64,000 nt of DNA from [Archangium] primigenium (GTDB lineage Bacteria > Myxococcota > Myxococcia > Myxococcales > Myxococcaceae): NCBI RefSeq assembly GCF_016904885.1, contig NZ_JADWYI010000001.1, positions 7,433,224 through 7,497,223 of the forward strand, in the 5' to 3' direction. A program made the translations under genes and the position numbers. The notes under the pieces are model-generated. The model saw only the letters and a list, made by a program, of their open reading frames with translations. It ran no database searches and was not told the origin of the DNA. Positions 14,414-61,685 of this stretch are shown piece by piece. How positions within the stretch are numbered: the stretch's first letter is position 1; each line of letters begins with the position of its first letter.

Positions 14414-14445
14414 GGAGGATGTGTACCGCCGATTTCGATTGGACG

Positions 14446-18492: not shown

Positions 18493-18540
18493 CGCCGTCG
18501 AGCTTGCCCCGACGAGGGGTGCAATCCAACATCACTCTTC

Positions 18541-19329: not shown

Positions 19330-19339
19330 GCCGCGCGGC

Positions 19340-21463: not shown

Positions 21464-21672
21464 AGCGCTTCCTCCTAGGGGTCCCCCGGGATAGGCACGG
21501 TGCGCGCGGGAGACGAGCACTTCGATGCAGGGCGCCCCCCCCATCTGCCCGTTGGCCAACGGTGCCGGGTGGAACGTGTCCGCTGGAAGGCATGAGGGCG
21601 AACGGGCGGACAGGCGCTCCCCGGCCCACGGGAAGGAGGCGAGCGCGCCGCCTCGCTAGACTCCCGCCCTTC

Positions 21673-42040: not shown

Positions 42041-42109
42041 GCCCGTGCGACGCGCCACGAGCGCGTGGACGGGGTGGAAGCGGGCCGGATAGGAGGGCGG
42101 CACCGCGGT

Positions 42110-43165
42110 TCAGCGCCCCACGGCCAGGGATTCGCCGCGCACCAGGCGCATCAGCGTGCCCGCCACGTCGTCGCCATGGACGAGGTGGTCCACCGCCTTG
42201 CGCCCCACCGCGGCGCCCGGCATGCCGAACACCACGCACGACTCCTCGTTCTGCGCGAGCGTCAGGCCCCCGCCCTGCTTGATGGCGAGCAGGCCCTCCG
42301 CGCCATCCTCGCCCATGCCGGTGAGGATGAGCCCGAGGGCGCGCCGCCCGTAGGCCTTGGCCGCGCTCTCCAGCAGCACCGTGCCCGAGGGCATGTGCCC
42401 GTCGCGCTCCACGCCCGGCTTGAGCGCCACGCGGCCCCGGAACGGAATGGCCATGTGCTGGCCGGGCGGCGCGATGAGCACGTTGCCGGGCAGGAGCTGC
42501 TCGCCATCCTGCGCCAGCCGCACCTTGAGCTTCGAGGAGTTGGCGAGCCAGCCCGCGAGCGACTCGGCGAAGGCGGCGTTGATGTGCTGCACGATGACGA
42601 TGGGCGTGGGGAAGTCCGCGGGCAGCTCGGACAACATCCGGAAGAGCACCTGCGGGCCGCCCGTGGAGCTGGCCACCGCCAGCACGCCATAGGGCATGCC
42701 CACGGGCGCGGGCGTGGTGCCCCCACCGGGCAGGGGCGGCCGACGCTTGCTGTGGATGTGGCGGATGACGCGCACCGAGGACAAGAGCTTCACCTCGCGC
42801 GACAGGTTCCACGCCTCCAGCCCCGCGTCGATGGACGGCTTGATCTGCAGCGCCAGGGCGCCGATCTCCAGCGCCCGGCACGTGAGCTCTGGCGCCTGCT
42901 GCCGCGGGTCCGCCGTGAGCATCAGGATGGGCGTGGGGACCTCGGCCATGATGTGCTCGACGGCCGTCAGCCCGTCCATCACGGGCATCTCCACGTCCAT
43001 GGTGATGACCTGGGGCCGGAGCTCTCGCGCCGCGTCGAGGGCTTCCTTGCCGTTGGTGCAAGTGCCGACCACTTCCAGATCCGGATCCCGGCTCAGTGCT
43101 TCACAGATCAGCTGTCGGCAGATGTGCGAGTCGTCGACGACCAGCACCGACACTTTCTTGCCCAT
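42110..43165 (-). CDS. cheB: Chemotaxis response regulator protein-glutamate methylesterase
   Basis: Receiver VLVVDDS...[12 protein letters not shown]. Methylesterase catalytic region VASSTGGPQ / HINA / FGMPGAAV. Confidence 0.9.
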
Positions 43166-43234
43166 GTGGCTTCCATACTCCGTGCGCGCCCCCTGGAATA
43201 TACCGAATGTGACCGGTCTTGACTCGCCGGTTCA

Positions 43235-45682: not shown

Positions 45683-47493
45683 CCCGTGCCCCCCGTTCCC
45701 GAGGACTCGATCTGGAAGCGCTCCACCACCACGCGCAAGTCCCTCGCCAGGGTGGACAGGTCACCATTGGCGCTGATGACCTGCTTGGTGGCGTTGTGGC
45801 TCTGCTGGGTGATGCGCAGGATGTCCGCCATGGCCTCGGCCAGCAGGTCCGTGCCGCCCTGCTGCTGCTGGGTGGCCAGGGAGATGGCCCGCACCGCGTC
45901 CGAGGTGCGTCCCGCCAGCTCCACGATCTGCCGCAGCGACTCGGACACCTGCTGCGCCAGCCCCGTGCCCAGCTCCGTGGCGCGCACGCCGCCCTCGGTG
46001 GCCATCACCGCGCCGCCCGAGGCGTCCCGCACCTCCTCGATGAGCCCCTCGATCTCCTTGGTGGACTCGATGACGTTCTCCGCGAGGCGCCGCATCTCCG
46101 CGGCCACCAGCGAGAAGCCCTGCCCCACCTCGCCCGCCTTGGTGCCCTCCAGCTCGGCGTTGAGCGCGAGCAGGTCCGACTTGTCGGCCACGCCGTTGAT
46201 GAACTCGACGATCTTGCCGATCTGCTGCACGCGCTTGTTGAGCCGGACCACCGCCGCGGCGATGGCCTGGTTGTCGTGGCGCATGCGGTTCATCGTCTCC
46301 ATGAACGACTCGGAGCTGGCCTGACCCGCCTTGGCCGCCGCGAGCGTCTTGTGGGCGATCTCCGCCACCGAGCCCGCGTTCTCGGCGATCTGCCGCGCCG
46401 AGCGCGCGAGTTCCTCCGTGGTGGCGCTCGTCTGATCCAACGAGCTGGCCTGCTCGGCGGCCCCGGCCTCATAGCGCGAGGAAGTGGAGAGGATCTCCTC
46501 GGTGGTGGTGCCGATGCGGCTGCCGGCGCGCTGCAACTGCGAGAGCACGCCCGCCAGGTGCGTGCGCATGGTGGAGAAGGCGGCGGAGACGGCCCACACC
46601 TCGTCCTCGGCGGGGATGATGCGCTGCTGGCTCAAATCCCCTTCGGCGATGTGGTGGGCCGCCTCGCCCAGCTGCCGCATCGGCCGGCCCAGGATGGTGC
46701 CCCCCACATAGGCGGCCGCCAGGGCCACGCCGAAGATGAGCAGGCACAACACACTGCCGGACACGAGCGACTCGTGGCGCAGCGACTCGGCCAGCTCCGC
46801 CTGCCGCGCCGGACTGGACGCGGTGAGGATCTGATCGAAGGCGCGATCGCTGAGCACCGTGGACACGTCCCAGATGAGCACCGCGGGCGTCATCACCACG
46901 ATGGCGGTGAAGACCACGAGCCGCAGCCGGATCTGCGAGCGCCGGGGCGCGATGCTGATGGCGAGCTGGGGCGTGAGTCCCAGGGAGGACATGTCCTGCA
47001 GCACCCCGCGCGACTGCAGGGTCACCAGGCAGTAGGCCAGCAGCGCGGCGAGGGGCCCGAAGACGAAGCTCGGCCAGCTCGTGCTCACCATCTGCGTGAA
47101 GCTGTTGAAGGGCCCATGGGCCCAGAGCCCCACGATGAAGAGCCCCGCGAGCACCCAGGCCCCGAGCGTGGCGGCGAAGGCGAAGTCGGCCAGCCGATGC
47201 ACCTCGAGCACCGCGTGGGCCAGCCGGTTCGGCATCACCATGCCCTCGTCCAGCTCCACGTCGCGCAGCGCGCGCAGGTGGCGCAGGCACAAGAGCCAGA
47301 CGATGAGGAAGGAGGTGACCGACAGCACGGCCAGCAGCGTGCGGTAGAGGGCGTGATCCTCCAGCCCCGAGGCGAGGGTGAGCTGCAGGTAGCGCGCCTC
47401 GAGCAGGGCCGTGAGGAAGTTGGCGCCGAGCACGGCGCGCAACAGTCGGCGGCTGAAGGGGCGGCGCGCGCGCAGGATGCGAGGGCGATCCAT
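45679..47493 (-). CDS. Methyl-accepting chemotaxis protein (membrane, HAMP + MCP signalling domain)
   Basis: Start MDRPRIL with GGAGGAG ribosome-binding site. TM helices. Highly conserved MCP tip ADKSDLLALNAELEGTKAGEVGQGFSLVAAEMRRLAE. Confidence 0.85.
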   Translation of the reverse strand: MDRPRILRARRPFSRRLLRAVLGANFLTALLEARYLQLTLASGLEDHALYRTLLAVLSVTSFLIVWLLCLRHLRALRDVELDEGMVMPNRLAHAVLEVHRLADFAFAATLGAWVLAGLFIVGLWAHGPFNSFTQMVSTSWPSFVFGPLAALLAYCLVTLQSRGVLQDMSSLGLTPQLAISIAPRRSQIRLRLVVFTAIVVMTPAVLIWDVSTVLSDRAFDQILTASSPARQAELAESLRHESLVSGSVLCLLIFGVALAAAYVGGTILGRPMRQLGEAAHHIAEGDLSQQRIIPAEDEVWAVSAAFSTMRTHLAGVLSQLQRAGSRIGTTTEEILSTSSRYEAGAAEQASSLDQTSATTEELARSARQIAENAGSVAEIAHKTLAAAKAGQASSESFMETMNRMRHDNQAIAAAVVRLNKRVQQIGKIVEFINGVADKSDLLALNAELEGTKAGEVGQGFSLVAAEMRRLAENVIESTKEIEGLIEEVRDASGGAVMATEGGVRATELGTGLAQQVSESLRQIVELAGRTSDAVRAISLATQQQQGGTDLLAEAMADILRITQQSHNATKQVISANGDLSTLARDLRVVVERFQIESSGTGGTG

Positions 47494-49295
47494 CAGGCGT
47501 CTCCTCCGCGGTCGGCCACGTGGAAGCGCTGCACCGTGGCCTTCAAATCGCTCGCCAGCAGCGACAGATCCGTGTTCGCGGCCACCATCTGCTGCGTGGC
47601 CTCGGCGTTCTCCTCGGTGACGCGCAGGATGTCTCCCATGGCGGCGGCGAGTTGGTCCGTACCCGTCTGCTGCTGCTGGGTGGCCAGGGAGATGGAGCGC
47701 ACGGCATGGGACGTCTGCCGCGCCAGCTCGAGGATGAGCCCCAGGCTGGCGTCCACCTGCGCCGCGAGCGACGCGCCCCGCTCGGTCGTCTTGAGGCCCG
47801 CCTCGGTGGCCATCACCGCGGCCTGGGTGGCGTCGCGGATTTCGTCGATGAGCCGCTCGATGGCCAGGGTGGAGGACAGCACGTTCTCCGCGAGGCGCCG
47901 CATCTCCGCGGCCACCAGCGAGAAGCCCCGGCCGGGCTCGCCCGCCTTGGTGCCCTCCAGCTCGGCGTTGAGCGCGAGCAGGTCCGACTTGTCGGCGATC
48001 TCGTTGATGAACTCCACCACCTTGCCGATCTGCTGCACGCGCTTGTTGAGCCGCACCACCGCGTCGGCGATGGCCTGGTTGTCGCCCTTCATGCGGTGCA
48101 TGGCGGCGAGGAAGGCCGCCGCGCTGCGCTGGCCACTCTGCGCCGCGCCGAAGGTGGTCTCCGCCATGGCGGACACCGACTCGGCGTTGACGGCGATCTG
48201 CTGCGCCGAGCGCGCCAGCTCCTCGGTGGTGGCGCGCGTCTCGTTGAGGGAGATGGCCTGCTCGCCCGCGCCCGACTCCTGATCCGCCGAGGTGGCCACG
48301 AGCTGCTCGGTGGTGGAGGAGATCTGCAGGCCCGCGCGCTGCAATTGCACGAGCGCCTGGGCGAGCTGCGCCTGCATGCGCGTGAAGGCGGCCGACACGG
48401 CCCACACCTCGTCCTCGGCGGGGATGAAACGGGGCGTGCGCACCTCGCCCTGGGCGATGCGCGTGGCGTCCTCGGACAGCACCCGGAGGGGCTCGGCGAT
48501 CACCGTGCCCGCCACGTAGGCCGTGCCCATCACCAGGAGCACCACCAGCCCCGCGAGCGCGCCGAGCGGCAGGCCCGTGGCATGGCGCGCCCGGCGCACC
48601 ACCTCGCGCTGCGTGGTGGGATCCTTCGACTCGAGGATCTGATCGAAGGTGCTCACGGTGCGGCTCACCGACACGTCGAGGATGAAGACGGAGGGCGAGA
48701 GCACCGCCACCGCGGTGAACAACACCAGGCGCTTGCGCAGCCGCAGCCGGTCCGAGGGCAGCGCCGAGATGACCTCCTGGGGCGACAGGCCATTGGCCGC
48801 GATGCGCTCGGCGGCCAGTCGGCTGCGGCGCACCACCAGCAGGTACACGAGCATGGCGGACAGCGGTCCGAGCGACACGCCGACGAGCCCGATGCGCATG
48901 CCCAGGGTCCACGACGCGCCCGCCAGGGGCGTGTACGTGGCCGCCAGCATCAACGCGCCCCCCAGCCAGCCCTGCAGGGTGAACCAGAACGAGCGGCCGG
49001 GGACCCGCCGCACCTCCTGCAGCGCGCGCCGCAGGTTGTCCGGTCCGGGCGTCAGCCGCCCTTCCTCCAGCGCCCGCAGCACCCGCAGGGCGTGGCGCTC
49101 CTGGGCACAGGACAGCACGCTGTTCATCAGCAGCACGCTCGCGAGCAGGCCCAGGAACAGCCAGATGCCCTCGCGCGGCAGCGAGTGCGTGACGCGTCCG
49201 TAGAGCAGCGCCAGCACCAGCCCCAGCGTGCCCCCCCACCAGGAGGGCCGGGTGGTCCAGAGCGACAATCCCTCGAGTTCCCGCGACACCGTCAC
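47493..49295 (-). CDS. Methyl-accepting chemotaxis protein, second paralogue
   Basis: GTG start 49293-49295 with GGGAGG upstream, overlapping the CheW-like stop (GTGA). MCP tip ADKSDLLALNAELEGTKAGEPGRGFSLVAAEMRRLAE. The 713-aa track ORF carries a spurious N-terminal extension. Confidence 0.8.
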   Translation of the reverse strand: MTVSRELEGLSLWTTRPSWWGGTLGLVLALLYGRVTHSLPREGIWLFLGLLASVLLMNSVLSCAQERHALRVLRALEEGRLTPGPDNLRRALQEVRRVPGRSFWFTLQGWLGGALMLAATYTPLAGASWTLGMRIGLVGVSLGPLSAMLVYLLVVRRSRLAAERIAANGLSPQEVISALPSDRLRLRKRLVLFTAVAVLSPSVFILDVSVSRTVSTFDQILESKDPTTQREVVRRARHATGLPLGALAGLVVLLVMGTAYVAGTVIAEPLRVLSEDATRIAQGEVRTPRFIPAEDEVWAVSAAFTRMQAQLAQALVQLQRAGLQISSTTEQLVATSADQESGAGEQAISLNETRATTEELARSAQQIAVNAESVSAMAETTFGAAQSGQRSAAAFLAAMHRMKGDNQAIADAVVRLNKRVQQIGKVVEFINEIADKSDLLALNAELEGTKAGEPGRGFSLVAAEMRRLAENVLSSTLAIERLIDEIRDATQAAVMATEAGLKTTERGASLAAQVDASLGLILELARQTSHAVRSISLATQQQQTGTDQLAAAMGDILRVTEENAEATQQMVAANTDLSLLASDLKATVQRFHVADRGGDA

Positions 49296-49663
49296 GCGAC
49301 CTCCCGCGACGAGGGCGCCAAGAAGCGCCCGAATTCCACCAACGACATGACGGGCCAGAGCGCGCCGCGCACCTGGATGAAGCCCTTGAGGCTGCACCCG
49401 GCCAGCCGCGCGAGCACCACCGGCGCGGGCAGCAGCGCGCGCGGCTCGGCATCGATCTCCAGGGTGTCCACGCCCACGCCCTCCCCCGAGATCGCCACGA
49501 GGATGCGGCCGGTGACGGACGCCTCGCGGAAGGCGTGGCTGGCCGAGCCCGCCAGCCCACCGAACGTGGAGGGAGACTCGATGGTGGCCACCTCCTGCGC
49601 GACGAAGGCGACCCGATTGTCGCCCGCGCGGCACAAGAGCGTGCCCGAGAGCCGGCCGCTCAT
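49292..49663 (-). CDS. CheW-like coupling protein (second, divergent paralogue)
   Basis: 123 aa, CheW-domain-sized. Lies between cheW and the first MCP. Weaker conservation than the cheW-1 gene. Confidence 0.65.
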   Translation of the reverse strand: MSGRLSGTLLCRAGDNRVAFVAQEVATIESPSTFGGLAGSASHAFREASVTGRILVAISGEGVGVDTLEIDAEPRALLPAPVVLARLAGCSLKGFIQVRGALWPVMSLVEFGRFLAPSSREVA

Positions 49664-49666
49664 CCG

Positions 49667-50101
49667 TCAGTTCCCCTGACTGAGGTGATCGAACAGCCCC
49701 TCGGGGTCGATGACCGCCACGTCTCGCTGGGCACTGCGGGCGGGGCCGCGCAGGTGCAGGTGCACCCCGTTGGCGCCCAGGGGCTCGAGGCGTCCATCCA
49801 CCTGGGACACCCCCGCCACCCGGCTGGCCGTGAGCGCCAGGGTGCCGCGGCCCAGGCGCACCAGGACGGCCCGGCGGGTGGACTCACTCGCGCCGGACAC
49901 CAGCATGCTCATGTCCACGACCGGGATGACTTCTCCGCGGTGGGCGAACACGCCGAGCAGGTGGCCCGGCGCACCGGGCACCCGCGTCAATTCCGGGAAG
50001 CTGACGACTTCCGCCGCGCACTCAGCGGGCACGGCGTACCAGCTGCTTCCACAGGCGAACACCAGGTAGGACTGCCGAGTCTCGGTCTCGATGGAGGCCA
50101 T
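49667..50101 (-). CDS. cheW: Chemotaxis coupling protein CheW
   Basis: 144 aa. CheW fold pattern (YLVFACGSSWYAVP, VIPVVDMSMLV). Confidence 0.8.
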   Translation of the reverse strand: MASIETETRQSYLVFACGSSWYAVPAECAAEVVSFPELTRVPGAPGHLLGVFAHRGEVIPVVDMSMLVSGASESTRRAVLVRLGRGTLALTASRVAGVSQVDGRLEPLGANGVHLHLRGPARSAQRDVAVIDPEGLFDHLSQGN

Positions 50102-50128
50102 CGCGCGGCAGCCTACCTCAAAGACCGG

Positions 50129-50884
50129 CTAACGGTTGAATTCGACGCGACGGTTGGCCGCCCAGGCCTCTTCCGAGGAACCCTGCTCGAGCGGCCGGTT
50201 CTCGCCGTAGCCCACCGTCTTGAGCTGGTTGGCCGGGATTCCCAGGTCCACCAGGTACTTCTTCACCGAGGCGGCGCGCTTCTGGGACAGCTGGAGGTTG
50301 TACTCCTCGGTGCCCCGCTCGTCCGCATGCCCGGCGAGCTCGATGCGGCCCGAACCGGCGCCCTTGATGCACTGGGCGAGATCCGACAGACGGCTCTGGG
50401 CCTCGGAGGACAGGGTGGCCTCGTTGAAGCCGAAGCGCAGCGGCTCCCAGCTGCACTCGGACTTGGTGGCGGCGGCCACGCACTTGTTCTGCTGGCACTC
50501 CTGGCCCCCGGCGCAGTCGGCGCTGTCGTTGCAGGAGCCCGGCGGCAGCACGCAGCGGCCCTTCTGGCACTCCTGGGCCCCCGCGCACTGGCTCTTGGAG
50601 GTGCACTGCGGCGCGGCGCACTTGCCGCCCTGGCAGATCTGCCCGCCCGTGCACTGCTCATCCCGCGAGCACTCCGGCCCCTTGGGCACGCACTTGTTGC
50701 CCTGGCACGCGAAGCCTTCCTTGCAGTTGGCGTCGGTGGCGCACTCCTGGCACGACCCGTTGACGCAGACCTCGCCCTTCTCCTGGCAGGTCTCGTCGCT
50801 CTTGCAGTTGGGGTAGGTCGGCGGGCAGCCGGCGAGCACCGCAACAGCGAGGGCGAGCCCCGCGACCATCGAGATCCGACGCAT
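50129..50884 (-). CDS. OmpA/MotB-domain peptidoglycan-associated lipoprotein (Pal-like) with an N-terminal Cys-rich repeat module
   Basis: Start MRRISMVAGLALAVAVLAGC (lipoprotein) with GGAGG ribosome-binding site. About eight C-x5-8-C repeats (CQEKGEVCVNGSCQEC..., CTGGQICQGGKC...). C-terminal OmpA-like motifs NLQLSQKRAASV, NRRVEF. Confidence 0.75.
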   Translation of the reverse strand: MRRISMVAGLALAVAVLAGCPPTYPNCKSDETCQEKGEVCVNGSCQECATDANCKEGFACQGNKCVPKGPECSRDEQCTGGQICQGGKCAAPQCTSKSQCAGAQECQKGRCVLPPGSCNDSADCAGGQECQQNKCVAAATKSECSWEPLRFGFNEATLSSEAQSRLSDLAQCIKGAGSGRIELAGHADERGTEEYNLQLSQKRAASVKKYLVDLGIPANQLKTVGYGENRPLEQGSSEEAWAANRRVEFNR

Positions 50885-50999
50885 TGGTCCTCCAGCGAAA
50901 TTGATCATGAAAACGAGTAGCTCAGCGCGTCCGCCTCTAGCCCGCCATGCAACGCGGAGTCAAAGCCTTTTGTCCCCCCCCAGGCCTCGTGCCCGCGCC

Positions 51000-51374
51000 T
51001 TAACGGGCGCGACATTCGCCCCCTTCCCACCGCAACCGGGGCACCCGTGTCAGTCCACAGTTGGACGCTTGTGATTCCTCTCGTTGCCAGGCCCGCTCGG
51101 CCTCCTCGAGCGCCTCGAGCCGGGCCTTCAGCGCGGCCCCGTCCGTCGTCCGGGAACAGTAGGCGACATGGGTCCTGGGTCCTCCACAGGACTTGAGCCC
51201 GAGTCCCACCAGCTCGCACTCCTCCACCTTCTCGCACCCCTTGGGATTGGCGAGCGCGCGCGCCTCGCGCTCGAGCCGTTCCACCCGCTGCTTGCCCGCG
51301 GAGCCCGTGGCCCCCGCGAGGCTCCCGCCCAGCAGGACGAGCCCCACCCACCCCACGCTCCGCCACCGCATCGC
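51000..51374 (-). CDS. Hypothetical small secreted Cys-containing protein
   Basis: Start MRWRSVGWVGLVLLGGSLAGA (signal peptide). GC3-consistent frame. No recognisable family. Confidence 0.4.
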   Translation of the reverse strand, partial: AMRWRSVGWVGLVLLGGSLAGATGSAGKQRVERLEREARALANPKGCEKVEECELVGLGLKSCGGPRTHVAYCSRTTDGAALKARLEALEEAERAWQREESQASNCGLTRVPRLRWEGGECRAR

Positions 51375-51518
51375 GCACCTCCCGGCGTTCGGGACACGCG
51401 CCCCAAACGACGAACGCGCTGGTGGGGAGATCCCACCAGCGCGTTCAAGCTTCAACAGACCTGGGAAGAGGTCAACCCGGTGGAGCGCTCAGCTCCACCC
51501 GGTCACTCTCCCGCCGTC

Positions 51519-54500
51519 TCAGGCGGCCATGCGGCGGCGGCGCGAGACGACGTAGCCGACGACGAACAGGCCGAGGTAGACGCTGGCGTCAGCGCCCGAG
51601 GCGGCGCTGCAGCCACCACCGGCGGGGCCCGCGGGGCCCTGGGCACCGGTGTCGCCCTTGTCGCCCTTCTCGCCAGGAGCGCCCGCGTCGCCCGTGTCGC
51701 CCTTCTCGCCAGGGGCACCAGGAGCGCCCGTGTCGCCCTTGTCGCCCTTCTCGCCAGGGGCACCAGGAGCGCCGGTGTCACCCTTGTCGCCCTTGTCGCC
51801 CTTCTCGCCAGGGGTGCCAGGAGCACCGGTGTCACCCTTGTCGCCCTTGTCACCCTTGTCGCCCTTGTCGCCCTTGTCGCCCTTGTCACCACCGCCCGTG
51901 GAGCCGATGGAGAAGGCGGCGGAGGTGGCGGAGGTCAGGCCGGACGAGGCGGCCACGAGCGTGTAGCCCGAGCCCGACTTGTCGATGGACAGACCGGTGA
52001 AGGTCGCCACGCCATCGACGGCGGTGGCCGTCGTGGTGCCCGACAGGATGGCGCCCGCGGCATTGCCGAGCGTCAGCGTGATGGAGGGCGTCGCGCCAGT
52101 GATGGTGTTGCCGAAGGCATCCTGCGCGGCCACGCTCACCGAGAACGTCGCACCCGGGGCCGTGCCGGCCGGAGGCGTGGTGAGGAAGACGAGCTTGGAG
52201 ACCGCACCGGCCGTCACGTTGAAGCCGACGCTCGTGTCCAGACGCGTACCGCTCGCGCCCGCCACCAGGGTGAAGTTGACGCCAGCGCGGTTGACGCGCA
52301 GGGCGCTGAAGGTGGCCACACCGTTCACCGCGTTCACGGTGGTGGTGCCGCTCAGGGTCGCGCCCGCCTCGTTGTAGCCGAGGGAGACGGTCACCGGGGC
52401 GTTGGACTGGGTCGCCAGGTTGCCGAACTGGTCATACAGGGTGACCTCGACCGCCGGGGTGATGATGGCGCCCGCCGCCGTATTGGACGGCTGCTTCGTG
52501 ATGGCCGAGCGGTAGATGGCCGCCGCGGTCACGTTGAAGGTGGTGCTCGCCGCGCCCGTGAGGGTGCCGGAGCTCGCCGCCAGCTTGTAGCCCGTGCCCA
52601 CCTTGGTGGCCGTCAGGTCGGAGAAGGTCGCCACGCCGTCCACCGCCGCCACCGTGAGGGTGCCGGTGATGCCGCCCGTGGGGCCCGCCGTCTGGGCCAG
52701 CGTGACGTTGGCCGTGGAGGCCGTCTGCACGTTGTCGAAGCTGTCCAGGACCGCCACGCGCACCGCCGGCGTCACCACACCCGCCGCGGTCGTCGCCGGG
52801 GGCTGGGTGAGGAAGGCGAGCTTGCTGGCCGCCGCCGCCGAGATGGTGAAGCTGGAGCTGGTGCCCTCGTCCAGACCGGACACGGTCGCCTTCAGGGTGT
52901 AGCCCACGCCCGTCTTGTTCAGGGACAGGTTGGTGAAGGTCGCCACACCGGAGGAGGTGGTCGCCGTGGTCGTGCCGGACAGCGTCGCGCCACCCGGGTT
53001 GTTCGCCAGGGACAGCGTGACGGTGTAGGAGCCCGTGGTCACCGTGGCACCGCTCGCGTCCTGGATGGCGACGCGCACCGTGCCGAGCGAGGCGCCCGCC
53101 GCGGCGTTGGCCGGCTGACCGGTGAAGCCCACCTTGGACGCCGAGGTCACCAGGGTGCTGGCGCTGGCGGTGATGCTGCCGCCCGTGGCCGTGATGGACT
53201 GGGTGCCCAGCGTGCCGAAGGTCACCGAGAGGCCGTTGGCCACACCCGCCGTGAACGTCGCGGCGGAGGGAGCGAACGTGGCCGCCGGGTCGGAGCTGGT
53301 GAGCGCCGCCGTGCCGGAGTAGCCCGTGGCGATCTGGCCCACGTTGTCATACGCCGTCAGGGAGAAGGCGATGGGCTGCGAGACGCGCGAGGCGGCCGGC
53401 AGACCCGTCAGGCGGTAGGACACCGCCGCGCCCGCGGGAGGCGTGTTCGTGGTGCAGGCGTTCGCCGAGTCCGACGTGATGCGCACGTCGTCCACGTACA
53501 TGCCCTCGGCCACGGTGATGGAGTCGGAGTAGAAGCGGAAGCCGAACCACACCTTCTGGCCGTTGAGCGCGCTCAGGTTGACCGTCACCGCCTTGAGCGA
53601 GCCGTTGGCGCCGCTGTTGGTGCTGGTCCAGATGCGCGTCGTGGGGGTGCTCTGCAGCGTGTTGTCGTAGCCGCCCGCGGTGATGTACGGGGCGCCCGCG
53701 GTCACCGCGTCGTTGACGTTGATCCAGGGGCCCGTGGCGCCCGTGGTGCTGTAGACCAGCCAGGCGCCGTCATACCGGGCCTCGAAGGCGTACCACAGGT
53801 TGAACGACATCGAGGGCGAGCCATCCGCGCTGAAGACGTTGAAGCCGTTGATGCTCGGGGACACGGTGCCGTCGCCGCCCAGCGCCAGGGTCAGGTTCTG
53901 GCTGTTGGCGTAGGAGCCCGCGCACTCGGTGTTCGTCGCGCCGAAGCGGTAGGCGTTCGTCGCCGACTGGTAGTGGCAACCCGACACGATGTTCAGCGCC
54001 GTGACGGAGCCGGCCGTGGCCGACGGGGTCCAGTACGCCGAGGCGTTGGCCGGACGGCTGCCATCGAAGTTGTCGAAGAACGTGGCGCCGCCCGAGATGA
54101 TCGAGCCCGTGGGGGTGGCCGAGCGCTGCACCGTGTTCTTGTCCTCGTTCGTCGCGGAGCTCACCTCGGTGGCACGCACCACGTAGAAGTAGGGCGAGTT
54201 GCTGGTGAGGTTCAGGTTGTCCGAGAACGTCGTGCCGGTGATGCCGGTGGCGATCCGGTTGGCCGCGGAGGGCGTGAAGCCCGCCGTGGTGGAGCGGTAG
54301 ACCGAGTAGGTCAGCGAGCCGCCGCAGGCCGCCTGGGCCGCGGACCACGACAGGGTCGTGGAGCAGGTGCTGGCCGCCGCGTTGCTGGCCGAGGTCAGAC
54401 CCTCGAACGTCGGGGCATCCTTGCACACGCCGGTCGCGGTGGCGGAGGCCTCGTTGGAGTTCGGGGACTCGGCGCACAGCACGCCGCGCACCACGTAGTA

Positions 54501-57179
54501 GTAGGTGCCGCCACCGGAAACCTCGGTGTCCACGAAGGGCGAGGTCACCGCCGTACCCACGCGGGTGTACGGGCCACCGGCCGTCTTGGAGCGGTAGATG
54601 TTGTAGGAGGACGCGCCGTTCTCCGTGAAGCTCACGGCGATCCGGTTGTCACCCGCCACGACGGCCGACACGCCCGTGGGGGAGGCCGGGGCCGTGTTGC
54701 AGGCGTTGTAGACCACCAGCGCGAAGTCCTGGTCGAGCGCCGTGCTGTTGTTGGGCACGCCGTCCGAGTTGATGTTCGTCGCCGTCACCGTCACGGTGAA
54801 GGGACCGGACACGCCCGCGGGCAGGTACACGCTCTCCACGTTGTTCATCAGGTCAGCCGAGCCACCGGACGTGGAGACGTCCTTGGTGAACACGTTGCCC
54901 TTGTACGTGGTGGTGCCCACCGTCACGGTGAGGTCCAGGTTGTTCTTGTAGGCCGCGCCCGACGTCGCACCCGGCGCGTCCGTCCACGCCAGCGTCACGC
55001 GGAAGGGCTTGGTGGAGTCGGAGATGGAGCCCGCGAAGGTGCGGGTCTGGCCGGTCGCGGTGAACAGGCTGGTCGTCGCCTGGTCCTCGAGCTTGCGCGG
55101 GGTGCCGTCGAACGCCATCCCCAGGTCCATCAAGCCCATGCCCTGGCTGTTGGAGTAGAGGTTGTCGTTGGCGCCCACGCCCGTGAGGTAGCGCGCCGAG
55201 TTCATCAGGTACGCCTTGGTCATCGCCGGGCTCGGCGCCGCCATGCCCTGGTTGATGAAGTACTGGCGCACGAGGGCCGCACCGCCCGCGACCGCGGGGG
55301 TCGAGTGGCTCGTGCCCGAGGAGGCCGAGTACCACTGCTGGGTGGTGGGGAAGAAGTTGCTGCCGCTCGGACCACCGCACACACCCGAGCCGTCGAAGCA
55401 CGAGAGCGCGGAGCCAAGGGCCGCGGCGGGCGGCTCGGCCTTCTGGCCGGCCGTCTGGGCCACGCCGCCGGTCACGTGCGTGCCGGGGGCCACGATGTCC
55501 GGCTTCTTGCGGCCGTCGGACGTGGGGCCGCGGCTGGAGAAGCTGATGATGTCGTTGAGGTTGTCCGCGCCCGTGTCGGCGATGGCGCAGTTGTCCGCGC
55601 CGCCGAACGGATGCACGTTCTCCGACGCACCCACCGTGATGACGTTCTTGGCCGTGGAGGGGCTGCCCACGGTGTTCGCCCCGGAGCCGGAGTTGCCGGC
55701 CGCGAAGGCGATGACCATCTCCTGGTTGCCGTCGGCGGGCACCGCCGCGGTGGACGGCTGCGCGTCACGCACCAGGCCGTCGTACGTCTGCGAGTCGGCG
55801 GTGTACGCGTTGCTGGTGGAGCCCCAGCTGTTGCTGCTGATGCGGATGTTGTCGCGGTAGCCGCGCGACAGCATGTTCGGGTAGTTGGGGCGCGTGAAGG
55901 TGCCCGGGTCGAACACGACCGAGGAGCCGAGCTTCACGAAGGGCGCCACACCCAGGCCGTACGAGTAGCCGGCCGCGTCCGTGTAGGGCGCGCCCGACTT
56001 GGTGTTGAAGCCACCGACGATGTGGCTGTTGAGCGTACCGTGGCCGTCGCAGCCCTGGATGGTGCTGCTGGCGTTGGGCGTGCCTTCCAGACGGTTGAAG
56101 ATCACGCGGCTCTGGCCGTTGATGTCGCCAGCGACGTACAGACCGAAGTGGTTGGGCGTCGGGGTGCCGTTGTCCAGGCCGCTGTCCGTCACGTCCACGC
56201 CGAAGCCGGACGTCGAGAACTGCTCCTGGGTGAAGCCCTTGGAGGCCAGCCACGCGAGGTAGCCCGGACCCGAGGGACCGTTGCCGGTGATGGCGCCGGA
56301 GATGATGCGGTTCTGCCGCTCATCCAGCTTGACCGGCACGACGTACGGCTGCACGGACACGACGTCCGGACGCTGCACGATCTGGTCGAGCGCGTCGCGG
56401 TTCACCGCGGCCTTGATGTTCACGTAGCCCAGCGCGCGCTCGGACACGTTCTCGCGCGACTGCAGCTTGGCGATGAGCGCCAGCGTGGCCGCGTTCGTCT
56501 CGGAGTCCTCCACCAGCTGGATGGAGTACTCGGCCACGACGGCCTTGTTCACGGACGGGTCCAGCTTGTAGTCCGGCAGGTACTCGCCGTCCCACTGGAT
56601 GGACTTGGCCGAGGACATGTGGTTCTGCAGCCGCTGGAGCGACGCCGAATCACCGTACACGAGGTAGGTGTTGTTCGGGATGTACGTCACGACCCGGACA
56701 CCGGTCTCCTCGAGCGCCTTGTACCACTCGGGGCGCACGGGACCGGAGAACTGCACCAGGTGCATGCTCTTGCCCGAGGACGTCTTGCGGATGCCCCGCA
56801 TCGACTGCGCGCGCTCGGACGCGGTGTCGATCGTGCCGGCGTTGAGCAGGATGTTGTTGTAGTCGTCGCGCAGCTCCACGCCCGCCTCGGCGGGAAGCGT
56901 GGACAGCACGGACTCTTCCAGGTGCATCAGCTTGAAGGAGCCGTAGTCCGCCAGGACCTTGGCGCCCCGCTTCTCCAGCTCGGCGGCCTGCTGCGCGTTG
57001 ACCTGCACCTTGTGCAGGACCGCGCTCGCGCGCACACCCTCTCCTCCGGACCGCGCCTGCGCCGACGTCTCCGGCGAGTTGCCGCACGCCAGTGCGGTCG
57101 CGAGCCACGCTACTCCAAGCACTCTCGCGGGGACGCCGCGAGCGCGCATACCGGTCGTCCGGTACGCTGATTGCGCCAT
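51519..57179 (-). CDS. Giant (~1886 aa) cell-surface protein: N-terminal subtilisin-like S8 peptidase, fibronectin-III-like, ~8 Ig-like (Big) repeats, collagen-like Gly-X-Y region, and MYXO-CTERM sorting tail
   Basis: Start [16 protein letters not shown]...ALACG. S8 His block [14 protein letters not shown] and Ser block [16 protein letters not shown]. Repeated ~95-aa units (…GVATFT/FS…GYTL/GYKL…). (GDKGDK)n / GAPGEKGD collagen triplets. C-terminal [33 protein letters not shown] (MYXO-CTERM). Confidence 0.85.
51625..51905 (-). repeat. Coding 9-bp tandem repeat array (gtcgcccttgtcgcccttctcgcc...) encoding the collagen-like GDK/GEK/GAP triple-helix region of the giant protein
   Basis: About 30 near-perfect Gly-X-Y codon triplets at the DNA level. 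Coding, not a CRISPR array: no spacers, and in frame within the CDS. Confidence 0.75.
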
Positions 57180-57634
57180 GATCTTCTTGCCCCTTGATAC
57201 GGGCGAGAGCCCTTGGGTTCGGGTCCCCGCCCGGATGAATGCCAGCGGTGGTTGCGCCTGGTCCGTTCCCCCCAGAACTGCGGGAGTCCATCCCTCACGA
57301 TTGTCCGCCGGAGCGTGCCAGATATCACGGAGTAGCAAAGACTGACAAGCAGCCGACAAAATCAGGGATTCTTCTTTCGTCTCAGCTGTCTTGGCTTTTG
57401 AGAATCCTGGCCGCTTGCTCTGGAATGGTGCACCACACCCGGGTGGCTTTCCCCGTAAATTCCGGGAAGACAGGCATTGGTTGTCTTTAAACCAGGAGTT
57501 CTGGTTTCACGTGCTTGCACGTGTCTTCAAGACAGAGCCGGGGCGAAATGCCCCGAATCCTTGATCATCCCGCGCGTTTCCGAGACGGTGGGGCTCCGCG
57601 CCACTTCCGGGCGCGCCCCCGAGGTGCCGCCGAC

Positions 57635-59089
57635 ATGCCCGCGTCCGTGCTCATCGTCGACGATGAGAAGAACATCCTGCTGACGCTCCAGACCTCCCTG
57701 CAGCTGGCGGGCTACCACGTGGAGCTCGCGGCCAACGGCCAGGTCGCCCTGGACGTGGTGTCCGCGCGCCCCGTGGACGCCGTGCTCATGGACGTGAAGA
57801 TGCCGGACATGGACGGGCTGACGGTGCTGGCGAAGGTCATGGAACTCAAACCAGAGCTGCCCGTCATCATGATGTCCGGTCACGGCACCATCGACACGGC
57901 GGTGAAGGCCACCCAACTGGGCGCGCGCGATTTCCTGGAGAAGCCCATCGCGCGGGAGCGGCTGCTCGTGGCCCTGCGCAACGCGCTCAAGCACCAGGCC
58001 GCCCTGGAGGAGCTGCGGGCCCTGCGCGCGGAGCACGGCCGCTACGACATGGTGGGCGGCGGCGCGGCCATGCAGCGCATCTTCTCGCTCATCCAGCGCA
58101 CCGCGCCCTCGGAGGGACGCGTGCTCATCACCGGCGAGAACGGCACTGGCAAGGAGCTCATCGCGCGCGCCCTGCACCAGCACTCGCGGCGCAAGGGCTC
58201 GCCCTTCGTGAAGCTCAACTGCGCGGCGGTGCCCCACGAGCTCATCGAGAGCGAGCTGTTCGGTCACGAGAAGGGCGCCTTCACCGGCGCGGTGAGCGTG
58301 CGCCGGGGCAAGTTCGAGCTGGCGCACGAGGGCACGCTCTTCCTCGACGAGATTGGCGACATGCCCCAGGCCATGCAGACCAAGCTCCTGCGTGTCTTGC
58401 AAGAGGGAGAGCTGGAGCGCGTGGGCGGCGCCGAGACGATCAAGGTCGACGTGCGGGTCATCGCCGCCACCAACAAGAACCTCGAGCGGGAGATCGAGGC
58501 GGGCCGCTTCCGGGAGGATCTCTACTACCGGGTCAACGTGGTGCAGATCCACTCGCCGCCCCTGCGCGAGCGGCGCGAGGATCTCCCCGCGCTCATCGAC
58601 ACCTTCCTGCGCGAGGCGTGCACGCGCAACGGGCGACGTCCCCTGTCCTTGTCACCCGAGGCCTTGTCCGTCATGGCCGCCTATTCCTATCCAGGCAACG
58701 TGCGTGAGCTGCGCAATCTGGTGGAACGTCTGGCCATTCTTTGCGAGGGCCCCGGCGTCTCGGGCGCCGATGCCCAGGAATTGCTGCCCCGCTCCCGGGG
58801 ACAGGCGCCCTCGACCAGCAGCGAGCCCGCCCCCCTCCCGCTCAAGCCCCTGCCCTCCCCCGCCCCCCCGACGGGCTTCCGCCCCCGGGTGGACCGGACC
58901 TTCCGCGAGCAGGTGGAGGACGCCGAGCGGGACATCCTCCAGCACACGCTCGCGCATACCCAGGACAACGTCACCGAGGCCGCGCGGCTGCTCGATCTGG
59001 AGCGCGGCCACTTCTATAAAAAACTGAAGGCCCTGGGCATCAAGCGCGGCGAGAAGGACGGCCCGCCCCCGGGCAACGAGGGCGGGTGA
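57635..59089 (+). CDS. Sigma-54-dependent response regulator (NtrC family: REC + AAA+ sigma-54 activator + HTH)
   Basis: Start MPASVLIVDDEKN (Asp54 equivalent in LMDVKMPDMDG). Walker A GENGTGKE, GAFTGA motif, Walker B LFLDEIGD, ESELFGHEKGAFTGA. C-terminal Fis-type HTH. Confidence 0.85.
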   Translation: MPASVLIVDDEKNILLTLQTSLQLAGYHVELAANGQVALDVVSARPVDAVLMDVKMPDMDGLTVLAKVMELKPELPVIMMSGHGTIDTAVKATQLGARDFLEKPIARERLLVALRNALKHQAALEELRALRAEHGRYDMVGGGAAMQRIFSLIQRTAPSEGRVLITGENGTGKELIARALHQHSRRKGSPFVKLNCAAVPHELIESELFGHEKGAFTGAVSVRRGKFELAHEGTLFLDEIGDMPQAMQTKLLRVLQEGELERVGGAETIKVDVRVIAATNKNLEREIEAGRFREDLYYRVNVVQIHSPPLRERREDLPALIDTFLREACTRNGRRPLSLSPEALSVMAAYSYPGNVRELRNLVERLAILCEGPGVSGADAQELLPRSRGQAPSTSSEPAPLPLKPLPSPAPPTGFRPRVDRTFREQVEDAERDILQHTLAHTQDNVTEAARLLDLERGHFYKKLKALGIKRGEKDGPPPGNEGG

Positions 59090-59099
59090 CGTCCCGGGT

Positions 59100-61112
59100 C
59101 TAGCGGGTGATGCTCAGCGCGGTGTCATCGAGGAAGAAGCTCGTCTTGTACGAGCTGTCCTCGGTGCCCTTGAAGGACACGCGGACGGTCTGGCCCTTGT
59201 AGGCGCTCAGGTCGAAGGACTTCTGCACGTAGTCGGTGGACTTGTTCACGTTGCTGTAGGTGGCCAGCGTGGCCAGGGCCGTGCCCGCGCTGTTGAGCAC
59301 CTGCACCGTGAGCTTGTCGTAGGCCGTGGTGGTCGTGGTCTCCGAGGTGACGATCTTCACCCAGAAGGACAGCGTCGCCGCGCAGGCCGTGGAGGGGAGG
59401 GTCACCTGCTGGGAGAGCGTCTCCGTGTTGGTGGCGCCCACGCCGTTGAGCCACGCCTTGTAGCTGCCCGTGCGCGCCGTGCTGCCCGAGGTCGTCCCGT
59501 CGATGACGCCCGTGGACTGTGTCCAGCCGGTGGCGCCGCTCTCGAAGCCCGCGTTGAGCAGGAGCTGCTCGGTGGTGGAGCAGGTGCCGCCCGTGCCATT
59601 GCGCACCGTCACGGACACCGCGGACGAGGTGCCCACGTTGCCCGCCGCGTCATAGGCCTTGGTGGTGAGCGCGTAGGTGCCATCGGCCAGGGCCGAGGTG
59701 TTCCAGCTCGCGCTGTAGGGCGCCGCGGTGGCGCTGCCCACCAGGCTCGTGCCCACGTAGAACTCCACCTTGGTCACGCCCACGTCGTCCGAGGCGGAAG
59801 CGCTCAGGGTCGTGGTGCCGCTCACCGTGGCGCCGCCCGCCGGCGACGTGAGGGTGGTGGAGGGCGCCGTGGTGTCCGCCGTGCCGCCTCCGCTGGTGAT
59901 GAACATCGAGTAGAGCAGGAGGTTGGGCGAGCCCGTGCCGGGGCTGCCCACCCGGCCCGTCGTCGCGCCGGCCGTCAGCGCCGCCGTCACCTGGGCCGGC
60001 GTGGCCGAGGGGTTGGCCTCCAGGTAGAGCGCCGCCACGCCCGCCACGTGCGGCGAGGCCATGGACGTGCCGCTCATGGAGGTGGTGGACGTGTTGCCCG
60101 AGTACGAGGCGGAGGTGATGTTCGAGCCCGGCGCGAAGATGTCCAGACACGTGCCGAAGTTGGAGTACGAGGCGCGCGCGTCGCTCGTCGTGGTGGCGCC
60201 CACGGTGATGGCGTTGGGCGTGCGCGCCGGGGAGTAGTTGCAGCCGTTGGAGCTGTCATTGCCCGCGGCGACCGCGACCACCACGCCCGCGGCGATGGTG
60301 CGCTCCACCGCGTCATCCAGCGCCTGCGACGCGTCACCGCCCAGGCTCATGTTGGCCACGGCCGGCTTGATGTGGTTGGCCGTCACCCAGTCCAGGCCGG
60401 CGATGACCTGCTCGTCCGAGCCGTAGCCCGTGCAGTCCAGCACGCGCACCGGGTGCAGCGTCACCTTCTTCGCGATGCCGTGCGTGGTGCCGCCCACCGT
60501 GCCGCCCACGTGCGTGCCGTGGCCGTGGCAGTCCGCGGCCGTCCCGCCCGCGGTGATGGAGTCGAAGCCGTTGCCCAGGCGCCCGGTGAACTGCGAGTGC
60601 GTGAGGCGCATGCCCGTGTCGATGATGTACGCGTGCACCCCCGTGCCATCGAAGTTGTAGCTGTACGTGGAGTTGAGCGGCAGGGTGCGCTGATCCGTGC
60701 GGTCCAGGCCCCACGTCGCGCTCGACTGGCTGCCCGAGCCCGACACCGACTTCACGCCGTTCTCCTCGATGTACGCCACGCGCGGATCCGCCAGCAGCTC
60801 GCGCACGCGCTCCTCGCTCAGGCGCGCCGAGAAGCCCTTGAGCACGTGCTGGTAGGTGTGCAGCACGTCACCGCCGCGCGTGCGCACCATCTCCTCGGCC
60901 AGCTGCGAGGGACTGACCCGGGCCACGCCCTTCACGTCCTCGCGCAGCACGACGATGTACTCGCCCCGCACCGCGTTGGGCTTGCGCAGCAGCTGGGCCA
61001 GCTGCCCCACCTCCTTCGACCCGATGACCTGCTCCGGCTCCTCGGCCGGGGGCGCTCCGCACGCGGACACACCCAACACACCACAGGCGAGCAGCATCCG
61101 ATTCAGCTTCAT
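59100..61112 (-). CDS. Secreted subtilisin-like serine protease (S8, proteinase-K-like) with I9 propeptide and C-terminal beta-sandwich domains
   Basis: Start MKLNRMLLACGVLGVSACG with GGAGG ribosome-binding site. Asp block AYIIDTG, His block HGHGTHVGG, Ser block GTSMASPHVAG. C-terminal Big/PPC-like domains. Confidence 0.85.
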   Translation of the reverse strand: MKLNRMLLACGVLGVSACGAPPAEEPEQVIGSKEVGQLAQLLRKPNAVRGEYIVVLREDVKGVARVSPSQLAEEMVRTRGGDVLHTYQHVLKGFSARLSEERVRELLADPRVAYIEENGVKSVSGSGSQSSATWGLDRTDQRTLPLNSTYSYNFDGTGVHAYIIDTGMRLTHSQFTGRLGNGFDSITAGGTAADCHGHGTHVGGTVGGTTHGIAKKVTLHPVRVLDCTGYGSDEQVIAGLDWVTANHIKPAVANMSLGGDASQALDDAVERTIAAGVVVAVAAGNDSSNGCNYSPARTPNAITVGATTTSDARASYSNFGTCLDIFAPGSNITSASYSGNTSTTSMSGTSMASPHVAGVAALYLEANPSATPAQVTAALTAGATTGRVGSPGTGSPNLLLYSMFITSGGGTADTTAPSTTLTSPAGGATVSGTTTLSASASDDVGVTKVEFYVGTSLVGSATAAPYSASWNTSALADGTYALTTKAYDAAGNVGTSSAVSVTVRNGTGGTCSTTEQLLLNAGFESGATGWTQSTGVIDGTTSGSTARTGSYKAWLNGVGATNTETLSQQVTLPSTACAATLSFWVKIVTSETTTTTAYDKLTVQVLNSAGTALATLATYSNVNKSTDYVQKSFDLSAYKGQTVRVSFKGTEDSSYKTSFFLDDTALSITR

Positions 61113-61205
61113 GACCAAGACCTCCAGGACAGCAGGGGGAAAAGGGGGAAACACCGATTTAGGCGCCTCCCCGTAGGAGCCGTCAATACCGGGACTCCCT
61201 TTTTC

Positions 61206-61685
61206 CTACATGCCGGGCGCCACGTTCGCGCCGATGCCCACGGCCAGCACGGGCAGCACGCGCCACTGCTTCCAATCGGGACGCGCCCAGGTGGCCGCGG
61301 TCGAGAGGCTCGCGCCGCCGCCCACCCGCAGGGGGCCCACCCGCCACGCCAGACCCGCGTGCGCGCCGTAGGGCAGCAGCAGCCGCGTGTGCAGGCTCGT
61401 CGTCCACACGAGGCCCCGGCCCTCCTGCGAGCGCCACAACATCCCCTCGTAGGACAGCGACTGCGAGGCGTAGGACACCCCCGCGTACAGCCCCACGGGC
61501 AGGGCGGCCACCACCTTCACCTGCTGGAGGAAGCTCAGCGCCACCTCGGGCGTGTACGCGCCGGCCAGGGGCATGTCGTAGTGGAGGAAGGTTCCGGCAT
61601 CCTCGCTCAGCAGATCCACCCGGTCGAAGCGCACGGGCGCGGCCAGCGTCACGCTCGCGGCCACCACGGACAGCATCAACGGCAC
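61206..61685 (-). CDS. Hypothetical small protein, possibly outer-membrane beta-barrel-like
   Basis: 159 aa, signal-like N-terminus, alternating hydrophobic pattern. GC3-consistent. No recognisable motif. Confidence 0.35.
   Translation of the reverse strand: MPLMLSVVAASVTLAAPVRFDRVDLLSEDAGTFLHYDMPLAGAYTPEVALSFLQQVKVVAALPVGLYAGVSYASQSLSYEGMLWRSQEGRGLVWTTSLHTRLLLPYGAHAGLAWRVGPLRVGGGASLSTAATWARPDWKQWRVLPVLAVGIGANVAPGM

Follow-up and report, generated by a model that had tools for sequence, protein, structure and literature searches.

A 64,000-nucleotide stretch of [Archangium] primigenium DNA (contig NZ_JADWYI010000001.1, positions 7,433,224 to 7,497,223; hereafter the window) carries on its minus strand, at 51519-57179, a gene for a 1886-residue S8 peptidase with a lipobox at its N-terminus, a MYXO-CTERM-type tail at its C-terminus and a long stalk of repeated domains between its protease head and its tail. 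We consider it reasonably likely that this protein is a KP-43-type zymogen which, after export and processing, is presented at the myxobacterial surface atop that stalk. Sequence comparison places it among the MYXO-CTERM S8 peptidases of Archangium-like myxobacteria, a large and uncharacterised family. The family itself is large, annotated and unstudied, and is represented by multiple copies per genome in these species; what is new here is a collagen-like spacer. Myxobacteria feed by the extracellular digestion of microbes and proteins, and the means by which they keep enzymes and products near the producer is an open practical question. The product of the gene described here clearly qualifies as a candidate surface protease, retained there through the recently defined myxosortase pathway. 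Its value is incremental, and existing ideas are not overturned by it.

The open reading frame is a real gene. A preliminary description of the window had proposed it with the same boundaries, and the translation, the codon composition and the conserved start bear that proposal out. Third-position GC is 0.93 in a window of about 70% G+C, and a value this high in a genome of such composition marks the minus strand as the true frame. The ATG at 57179 and the first residues of the protein (M-x-x-S-A-Y-R-x-T-G-M-R-A-R-G) are repeated in Archangium orthologues, and an AAGGGG motif lies just 5' of the start codon. An open reading frame of 2028 codons on the plus strand (51084-57170) was considered as a gene and rejected as a shadow, given that its Arg/Gly/Ala-rich, repetitive translation has no recognisable domain and that it mirrors the real gene. 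The exact 1886-residue protein found no match in a collection of 15 billion sequences, in which the product of the neighbouring regulatory gene crdA is present at 100% identity (Archangium primigenium). It may be that the source record leaves the protease gene without annotation, marks it as a pseudogene or is itself masked.

The catalytic domain matches the Pfam model Peptidase_S8 (PF00082) over residues 325-682 with 150.6 bits against a cut-off of 21.8 (E 7.7e-44). The preliminary description had placed the S8 blocks DGHGT and GTSHSTP first in the protein, and both are present: H380 lies within CDGHGT (377-382) and S624 within GTSHSTP (622-628), while D332 is found in DSG and N496 in AAGNSG. 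An alignment with the catalytic triads of S8 enzymes had been named as a check on that description, and the result is in its favour, in that the D332/H380/S624 triad and the oxyanion residue N496 are invariant among 31 aligned family members. Sequence searches of the PDB with the head return SubHal (5fax, E 2.8e-42) and KP-43 (1wmd, E 3.8e-40), and a second stretch aligned to these two enzymes spans residues 606-803 and includes the LAWTDAPG...NNVE...FALV domain. An AlphaFold2 model of residues 33-830 has a predicted local distance difference test score (pLDDT) of 82 and a predicted template modelling score of 0.90. Foldseek searches with this model recover KP-43 (1wmd) at a target-normalised TM-score of 0.81, and also SubHal and ProN-Tk-SP (3afg), the last of which matches the fold of both the propeptide and the catalytic domain. 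The profile score, the Asp-His-Ser order with its accompanying Asn and the jelly roll all agree with placement in the KP-43 subgroup of peptidase family S8.

In the model, the three N-terminal units (about residues 55-279) pack against the catalytic domain, and a low-confidence linker at about residues 286-294 is a candidate processing site. Judging from sequence and model, the head looks like the active zymogen of a KP-43-type subtilisin. Further towards the N-terminus, at least 90% of 31 aligned sequences share C32, and a hydrophobic stretch followed by a Cys is also seen in homologues.

The resemblance to KP-43 and SubHal (1wmd, 5fax) covers a catalytic domain with a C-terminal jelly roll, the same D-H-S order, E values of 1e-40 to 1e-42 and TM-scores of 0.80-0.81. 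These Bacillus enzymes, however, are free secreted proteins of about 430 residues, whereas the protein described here adds a 240-residue N-terminus of three units, has extra loops within its catalytic domain and continues into a stalk of about 1000 residues with a membrane anchor. Other KP-43-subfamily peptidases, which carry a C-terminal sorting domain, remove their own inhibitory propeptide by self-cleavage (PMC11982257). Among these, SpBcA, SpBcB and SpBcC of Bergeyella cardium likewise combine a KP-43-type head, a self-cleaved inhibitory propeptide and a C-terminal signal for delivery to the surface (PMC11982257). They differ by relying on the C-terminal domain of the type IX secretion system instead of a MYXO-CTERM tail, the myxosortase MrtX and the type II secretion system, and by having no long stalk of Ig-like domains and collagen. 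Moreover, their activity has been demonstrated, whereas that of the protein described here is predicted from its sequence and model.

At the extreme C-terminus the protein reads GGGCS...RRRRMAA, and the stretch after the Cys contains neither charged residues nor proline. MYXO-CTERM tails are defined by a Cys, an uncharged and proline-free helix and a terminal cluster of Arg residues (PMC11980579; bioRxiv 10.1101/2023.06.07.544157). These parts, together with the tails of the relatives, support the view first put forward for this window that GGGCS...RRRR is a MYXO-CTERM tail and that it implies surface anchoring. Of the 120 listed relatives, about 100 have the ending GCGCGATSGxDASxYLGLxxLARYxxxRRR at the equivalent C-terminal position, and several relatives have been named MYXO-CTERM or TIGR03382 by the Joint Genome Institute. 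Within the 31-sequence alignment, C1857 and the Arg residues of the tail are conserved at a level of at least 90%. A match to the MYXO-CTERM hidden Markov models had also been set as a check, and its outcome is mixed. The isolated tail of 45 residues exceeds both cut-offs, with 23.6 for TIGR03901.2 (cut-off 20) and 23.4 for TIGR03382 (cut-off 15.85), whereas scores in longer contexts drop to just below a cut-off, as noted further below. For assigning this tail, homology to the canonical tails of the relatives decides better than a borderline model score. As a separate observation, MYXO-CTERM scores fall as the scanned length grows, and an annotation pipeline that scans whole proteins would miss the tail.

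Cleavage by MrtX and passage to the surface via the type II secretion system have been described for MYXO-CTERM proteins, which have also been reported with an adjacent disordered region (PMC11980579). No CPBP protease was found among the window genes scanned. A terminal tag of Cys, helix and Arg residues on a large, multidomain surface protein of the Myxococcota is likewise found in TraA, in MXAN_4924 and in the ‘myxosortase-dependent M36 metallopeptidase’ (NF038112), and the MAM-like domain present here matches the corresponding part of the M36 models. The differences lie in the enzyme class and in three features of the protein in the window, namely its single Cys, a collagen array in place of the disordered linker and an additional N-terminal lipobox. 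A comparable solution is represented by VesB of Vibrio cholerae, a serine protease that is kept at the surface via a processed C-terminal tag (GlyGly-CTERM, handled by rhombosortase and the type II secretion system; PMC11980579). VesB, however, has an unrelated trypsin-like fold, uses another tag and another sorting enzyme, and is stalkless.

The stalk begins with two FN3-like domains. The first (829-911) matches the PDB entry 3mpc, a ‘Fn3-like protein’, with an E value of 5.3e-12, and hhalign relates the two domains to each other at a probability of 97.9% (E 4e-13), so the FN3 assignment made at the outset holds; the Pfam model fn3 gave zero matches in scans of the protein and its segments. 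The MAM-like region that follows scores 27.2 bits with the Pfam model InhA-like_MAM when scanned as an isolated segment (cut-off 26.9), matches the equivalent part of the models for rhombosortase- and myxosortase-dependent M36 peptidases, and is all-beta in AlphaFold2 with pLDDT of about 70-94. Sequence searches of the PDB with the Ig-like and MAM-like segments returned no matches, and fold prediction was therefore required. The AlphaFold2 model of residues 1031-1770 is all-beta with a pLDDT of 90 (above 90 in the Ig region), and its best Foldseek matches are titin I65-I70, contactins and the S-layer proteins SbsC and EA1 (E 1e-16 to 1e-10). Pfam gives weak hints of Invasin_D3 and Big_1 on the Ig-like stalk.

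About eight Ig-like repeats of some 95 residues had been counted in the preliminary description, and this proved to be an overcount. A repeat profile finds four clear copies of about 100 residues (1349-1759; 129-152 bits) and matches a fifth, divergent copy (1252-1348) weakly, and the sequence GVATF occurs exactly four times in the protein. The remainder of that description stands with respect to domain order, motifs, coordinates, and the S8, FN3, collagen and tail assignments. Four features were missed in it: the lipobox Cys32, the KP-43 jelly roll, the MAM-like domain and the small gene at 51000-51371.

The stalk ends in a run of G-X-Y triplets without a single interruption, composed largely of GDK (10), GAP (6), GDT (5) and GEK (4) and containing nine prolines. 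Its score with the Pfam model Collagen (PF01391) is 46.8 bits against a cut-off of 27.2. The region had been described as 96 residues long; its collagen-like nature is confirmed, and the length is corrected to 93 residues, or 31 triplets. At the DNA level, Tandem Repeats Finder reports a period of 9 at 51650-51887 (26.4 copies, 72% matches) with higher-order periods of 45 and 54 bp, just as a 9-bp tandem array had been read from the letters. The array is present in two of the 121 sequences examined and is missing from 119 of the 120 listed homologues, the sole relative with a G-X-Y run being a metagenomic protein (P0096) with seven triplets before its Cys. Most relatives carry more Ig-like repeats and a Big_7 domain at this position, and short Gly/Asp-rich linkers are found in place of the collagen array. 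A homologue search with the collagen-plus-tail segment was uninformative, since it returned generic small collagen-like proteins and none with such a tail.

Variation in the length of this array had been predicted, and a comparison between strains agrees with the prediction. The closest DNA is that of Melittangium boletus (CP185340), which is 98% identical over 6.3 kb and in which the collagen array is longer by 27 bp in frame, equal to three extra triplets and in keeping with the 9-bp tandem structure. We propose that the collagen segment is a lineage-specific spacer derived from a 9-bp tandem array that expands and contracts. A spacer that is rare, and whose length differs between near-identical strains, offers a natural experiment on the relation between stalk length and a surface enzyme.

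These features suggest the following course of events for the zymogen. The protein would be exported by Sec, Cys32 would be lipidated, and the MYXO-CTERM helix would retain the protein in the inner membrane. Cys1857 would then be modified, the housekeeping myxosortase MrtX would remove the helix and the Arg cluster, and the type II secretion system would move the protein to the outer face, as it does for TraA in M. xanthus. The three-unit N-terminal region would serve as both intramolecular chaperone and inhibitor, and autoprocessing would remove it together with the N-terminal lipid, such that the mature enzyme is held by its C-terminus alone. The predicted stalk comprises two FN3-like domains, one MAM-like domain, five Ig-like domains and the 31 collagen triplets, and if fully extended it would raise the catalytic head above the membrane by roughly 50-60 nm. 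For this estimate, each domain was given its standard size and each collagen residue 0.286 nm. The likely role would be to digest extracellular protein from prey, matrix or environment while bound to the cell, so that the products stay near the producer. The coordinates of these and neighbouring features are collected in Table 1.

Table 1. Features of the protease gene and its surroundings in window coordinates (residue numbers refer to the 1886-residue protein)
Feature	Residues	Position	Strand	Basis
Protease coding sequence (1886 residues) plus stop		51519..57179	-	Open reading frame and translation, third-position GC, homologues, conserved start codon
Probable lipoprotein signal peptide (LATALA, then C32)	1-32	57084..57179	-	Read from sequence
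Propeptide-like region	about 50-290	56310..57032	-	AlphaFold2 model: three beta-alpha-beta-beta-alpha-beta units
S8 catalytic domain	about 325-690	55110..56207	-	Pfam PF00082, PDB, Foldseek
KP-43-type C-terminal beta jelly roll	about 700-825	54705..55082	-	Alignment and all-beta model
Two FN3-like domains	829-915 and 918-1026	54102..54695	-	PDB 3mpc, hhalign
MAM-like / choice-of-anchor-J-like jelly roll	about 1031-1240	53460..54089	-	Weak Pfam and NCBIfam matches, model
Five tandem Ig-like domains	1252-1759	51903..53426	-	Repeat profile, AlphaFold2, Foldseek
Collagen-like segment (31 G-X-Y triplets)	1764-1856	51612..51890	-	Triplet count, Pfam Collagen, Tandem Repeats Finder
MYXO-CTERM-type tail	1855-1886	51522..51617	-	Cys1857, then a hydrophobic stretch without charges, then RRRR
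Small secreted six-cysteine protein (123 residues)		51000..51371	-	Signal peptide, six Cys; 147 bp after the protease stop codon
CrdB orthologue (OmpA-domain lipoprotein)		50129..50908	-	Pfam OmpA, synteny
CrdA orthologue (NtrC-type sigma-54 activator)		57635..59089	+	Domain content, identity, synteny
Second S8 protease		59100..61112	-	Lipobox, I9 propeptide, S8, Big_7 and choice-of-anchor-J (Pfam, NCBIfam)
Candidate sigma-70-type promoter (TTGTCA-N16-GATATC)		57321..57348	-	About 140 nt before the start codon

The wider family gives this scheme some context. At E<=1e-5 the protein has 1574 homologues, and its best relatives, which are 55-66% identical and 1900-3100 residues long, come from Hyalangium, Vitiosangium, Archangium, Stigmatella and Melittangium. 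Their sole annotation is “S8 family serine peptidase”, and several genomes hold more than one copy of the family. The head module (residues ~50-830) is found at 53-60% identity in Verrucomicrobiota, Planctomycetota, Acidobacteriota and others (loci L033-L081), where it is joined to different C-terminal parts. Because the head is conserved across phyla while the C-termini differ, the protease appears to be the selected part, with the stalk free to vary. Many of the Verrucomicrobiota copies end in a recurring (R/Q)(F/Y)YR(V/A)(R/K)xxP motif, which we could not assign to any known sorting signal.

Several points weigh against the proposal of a surface-displayed zymogen. When the last 300 residues are scanned, the score for TIGR03901.2 is 19.3, which is just under its cut-off, and that for TIGR03382 is 18.5; with the whole protein, TIGR03901.2 is not listed and TIGR03382 reaches 15.5, again just short. 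The tail has a single Cys (GGGCS) instead of the common GCGC. To our knowledge, a lipobox at one end and a MYXO-CTERM tail at the other have never been studied together, and the order of events given above is a guess. The M. boletus copy has one extra G at about codon 1296 (about position 13739 of locus L001), and the annotated protein there is 1534 residues long with a nonsense tail, without the stalk, the collagen segment or the anchor. Either the extra G reflects an error in sequencing, or the copy is a true pseudogene; if the frameshift is real, the gene is dispensable in that strain. The expression, secretion and activity of the protein are predictions from its sequence and model, and we infer its substrate and biological role. 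Finally, no trimerisation domain adjoining the collagen segment was recognised in the Pfam scans, and a run of 31 triplets is short, so that it could act as a flexible linker.

These last two points are also what would be expected if the G-X-Y array were a disordered, low-complexity spacer without a triple helix, similar to the linkers before other MYXO-CTERM tags, and we regard this as quite possible. The same account draws on the short Gly/Asp-rich linkers of the relatives at the same place, on the presence of only nine prolines and on the disordered region that has been reported beside MYXO-CTERM (PMC11980579). However, the 31 triplets are uninterrupted, and the collagen frame is kept in both alleles despite the 27-bp indel. 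The Pfam Collagen score is above its threshold as well. Furthermore, the array is rich in GDK and GEK, and K-G-D and K-G-E pairs stabilise bacterial triple helices that are free of hydroxyproline, so its high content of such pairs also speaks against a purely disordered spacer. The segment may, from its sequence, trimerise.

If a true triple helix formed at the membrane, the product would be a lipid-anchored trimer in which three subtilase heads stand on a stalk of about 50-60 nm. The length of the stalk would be tuned between strains by slippage of the 9-bp repeat, and the small six-cysteine protein encoded nearby would be its dedicated inhibitor, chaperone or receptor. We judge this combination to be unlikely. 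If true, it would, as far as our searches show, be the first enzyme-bearing bacterial collagen known to us.

The same segment invites comparison with the collagen-like adhesins Scl1 and Scl2 of Streptococcus and Lcl of Legionella, whose G-X-Y regions are likewise uninterrupted, charge-rich, free of hydroxyproline, variable in length and placed beside a surface anchor. It could be argued on this basis that the protein is an adhesin first, in which the Ig-like, collagen, FN3-like and MAM-like parts bind prey, matrix or kin and the protease is secondary or a maturation device. The collagen segment does match the Scl1, Scl2 and Lcl models in their collagen parts, and adhesins often contain Ig domains in tandem, FN3 domains and MAM-like domains. 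Nevertheless, the scores against these models are 67.1 versus a cut-off of 400, 44.9 versus 325 and 50.2 versus 500, and the G-X-Y part alone aligns. Membership in the Scl1, Scl2 or Lcl families was rejected on this basis, the scores being 8-10 times below the cut-offs. These proteins also differ in having a trimerising head and no enzyme, and in being anchored by LPXTG or peripherally instead of by a MYXO-CTERM lipid anchor. Moreover, conservation in the family across phyla is highest in the protease head (53-75% identity, with the triad intact), whereas stalk length is freely variable and collagen is missing from nearly all relatives. An adhesin in which proteolysis is subordinate therefore seems to us improbable, and the reading as a surface-held protease is well supported.

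Beyond the stop codon of the protease gene lies the gene for a small secreted protein with six cysteines. In 15 loci a homologue of this protein is encoded 85-310 bp behind the stop codon of the protease gene, and one of these loci (Stigmatella L002) has an unrelated context, with genes for a cytochrome and TamB upstream. The small gene is lacking in about half of the paralogue loci of myxobacteria. The protein and ten of its relatives found no match in Pfam, NCBIfam or the PDB, and its family, which is unannotated, comprises 606 representative clusters at E<=1e-3. Its recurrent position suggests that the small protein is a probable partner of the large protease, and it is a better partner than either the sigma-54 activator or the second S8 protease that lie on the other side. 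Possible roles are those of an inhibitor, a chaperone or a receptor.

The divergently transcribed activator tempts one to a regulatory inference, which the present analysis corrects. Across 98% of its length, this protein shares 80% identity with CrdA of M. xanthus DK1622, and by homology and synteny it is a CrdA orthologue and part of the Che3/CrdS system, with the adjacent sigma-54 activator thus being the CrdA of the Che3 developmental pathway. A complete Che3-type cluster is present on the minus strand at 40796-50908, with genes for CrdB, CheW, a protein of 123 residues, a pair of methyl-accepting chemotaxis proteins (MCPs), a CheA-receiver hybrid, CheB and CheR. The M. xanthus cluster (PMC3147164) has the same order (crdB-cheW-123-residue open reading frame-MCP-MCP-cheA-cheB-cheR). 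The crdA gene of M. xanthus and of Stigmatella is placed directly opposite crdB, followed by cheW3-mcp3A-mcp3B-cheA3, with the open reading frame of 123 codons after cheW. Because of this arrangement, the activator is assigned to Che3/CrdS and the protease gene is seen as an insertion. Together the protease gene and the small gene make up this insertion, which measures about 6.2 kb, separates crdA from crdB, distinguishes the window from M. xanthus and Stigmatella and is common to seven Archangium/Vitiosangium loci.

One might therefore ask whether the cassette of protease and small gene is tied to CrdA, CrdB and Che3, either by read-through into crdB-che3 or by making or removing an envelope signal that CrdB and Che3 sense. 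The insertion site is the same in Melittangium/A. primigenium, Archangium and Vitiosangium. The genes lie on one strand, on which the interval from 51700 to 50800 has no predicted terminator-like site, and CrdB has been proposed to sense envelope stress (PMC3147164). Yet the same cassette occurs in an unrelated context in Stigmatella, and several paralogues are found elsewhere. Furthermore, crdB keeps its own conserved proximal element 3' of the insertion (GAGTCAAAGC...TTTGTCCC at about 50957-50976), which is also present 5' of crdB in Stigmatella. A comparison of the region between crdA and the protease gene with the crdA-crdB intergenic regions of M. xanthus and Stigmatella gave a single common element, a 20-nt block that lies upstream of crdB and not of the protease gene. 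Position alone is weak evidence, and we find a functional tie to Che3 very doubtful.

The preliminary description had located both flanking genes correctly, at 57635-59089 for the activator and 59100-61112 for the second S8 protease. From their adjacency it had proposed a regulated proteolytic module and a search for sigma-54 promoters upstream of 57179 and 61112, and none was found. With the consensus TGGCAC-N5-TTGCW and up to two mismatches, the -24/-12 scan of 57180-57634 and 61113-61300 gave zero matches. The best candidates in an additional GG/GC-anchored scan of four upstream regions had 4 mismatches in 11 positions. Across the window, 20 matches to the sigma-54 consensus were counted compared with 27.9 expected by chance.

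The intergenic region does contain another conserved signal. In an alignment of eight orthologous loci, TTGTCA-N16-GATATC/T is among the best-conserved stretches, with CTTGTCAG...GTGATAT nearby. From its sequence this block looks sigma-70-like and is a candidate promoter. It scores 8 of 12 here, which is below the threshold of the promoter tool, and that tool reported no sigma-70 match at threshold and no minus-strand terminator in 57100-57700 and 50800-51700. A TGGCAC sequence adjoins the TTGTCA block in the window and is not kept in Archangium.

We consider it highly improbable that a single regulated module for contact-dependent predation is made up of the large protease, the sigma-54 activator and the second S8 protease: the three genes are adjacent, the activator diverges from the large gene across 455 bp and stays beside it in Archangium and Vitiosangium, and the targets of CrdA were stated to be unknown in 2011 (PMC3147164), which leaves some chance that it regulates the inserted gene, but the activator is the CrdA orthologue and is equally conserved, paired with crdB and che3, in M. 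xanthus and Stigmatella without the large protease alongside, neither protease gene has a -24/-12 element 5' of it and window-wide matches do not exceed chance, the conserved upstream block is sigma-70-like, and the second S8 gene is convergent with crdA and missing from the flanks beyond it in Archangium and Vitiosangium.

The last of these results comes from the seven Archangium/Vitiosangium loci that have the large protease beside crdA, in which the second S8 gene was not found within a flank of about 8 kb beyond crdA. This protease was also considered as a paralogue or partner of the large one and rejected, as it belongs to another S8 subgroup (I9 propeptide, proteinase-K-like) and shows no co-conservation with the large gene. 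In Stigmatella aurantiaca (12668-21506 of locus L083), the genes downstream of crdA encode a dCache histidine kinase, a 669-residue I9-S8-Big_7 protease and a GMC oxidoreductase. The Stigmatella protease gene lies about 4 kb from crdA, and its product has the same domain architecture as the second S8 protease of the window. The window retains the S8 protease and the GMC oxidoreductase without the kinase that in Stigmatella separates them from crdA. As judged from gene order, this arrangement points to an old regional synteny and not to a functional module. Between the GMC oxidoreductase gene and the second S8 gene, an open reading frame of 159 codons on the minus strand (61206-61685) has no family match and is 99% conserved in M. 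boletus.

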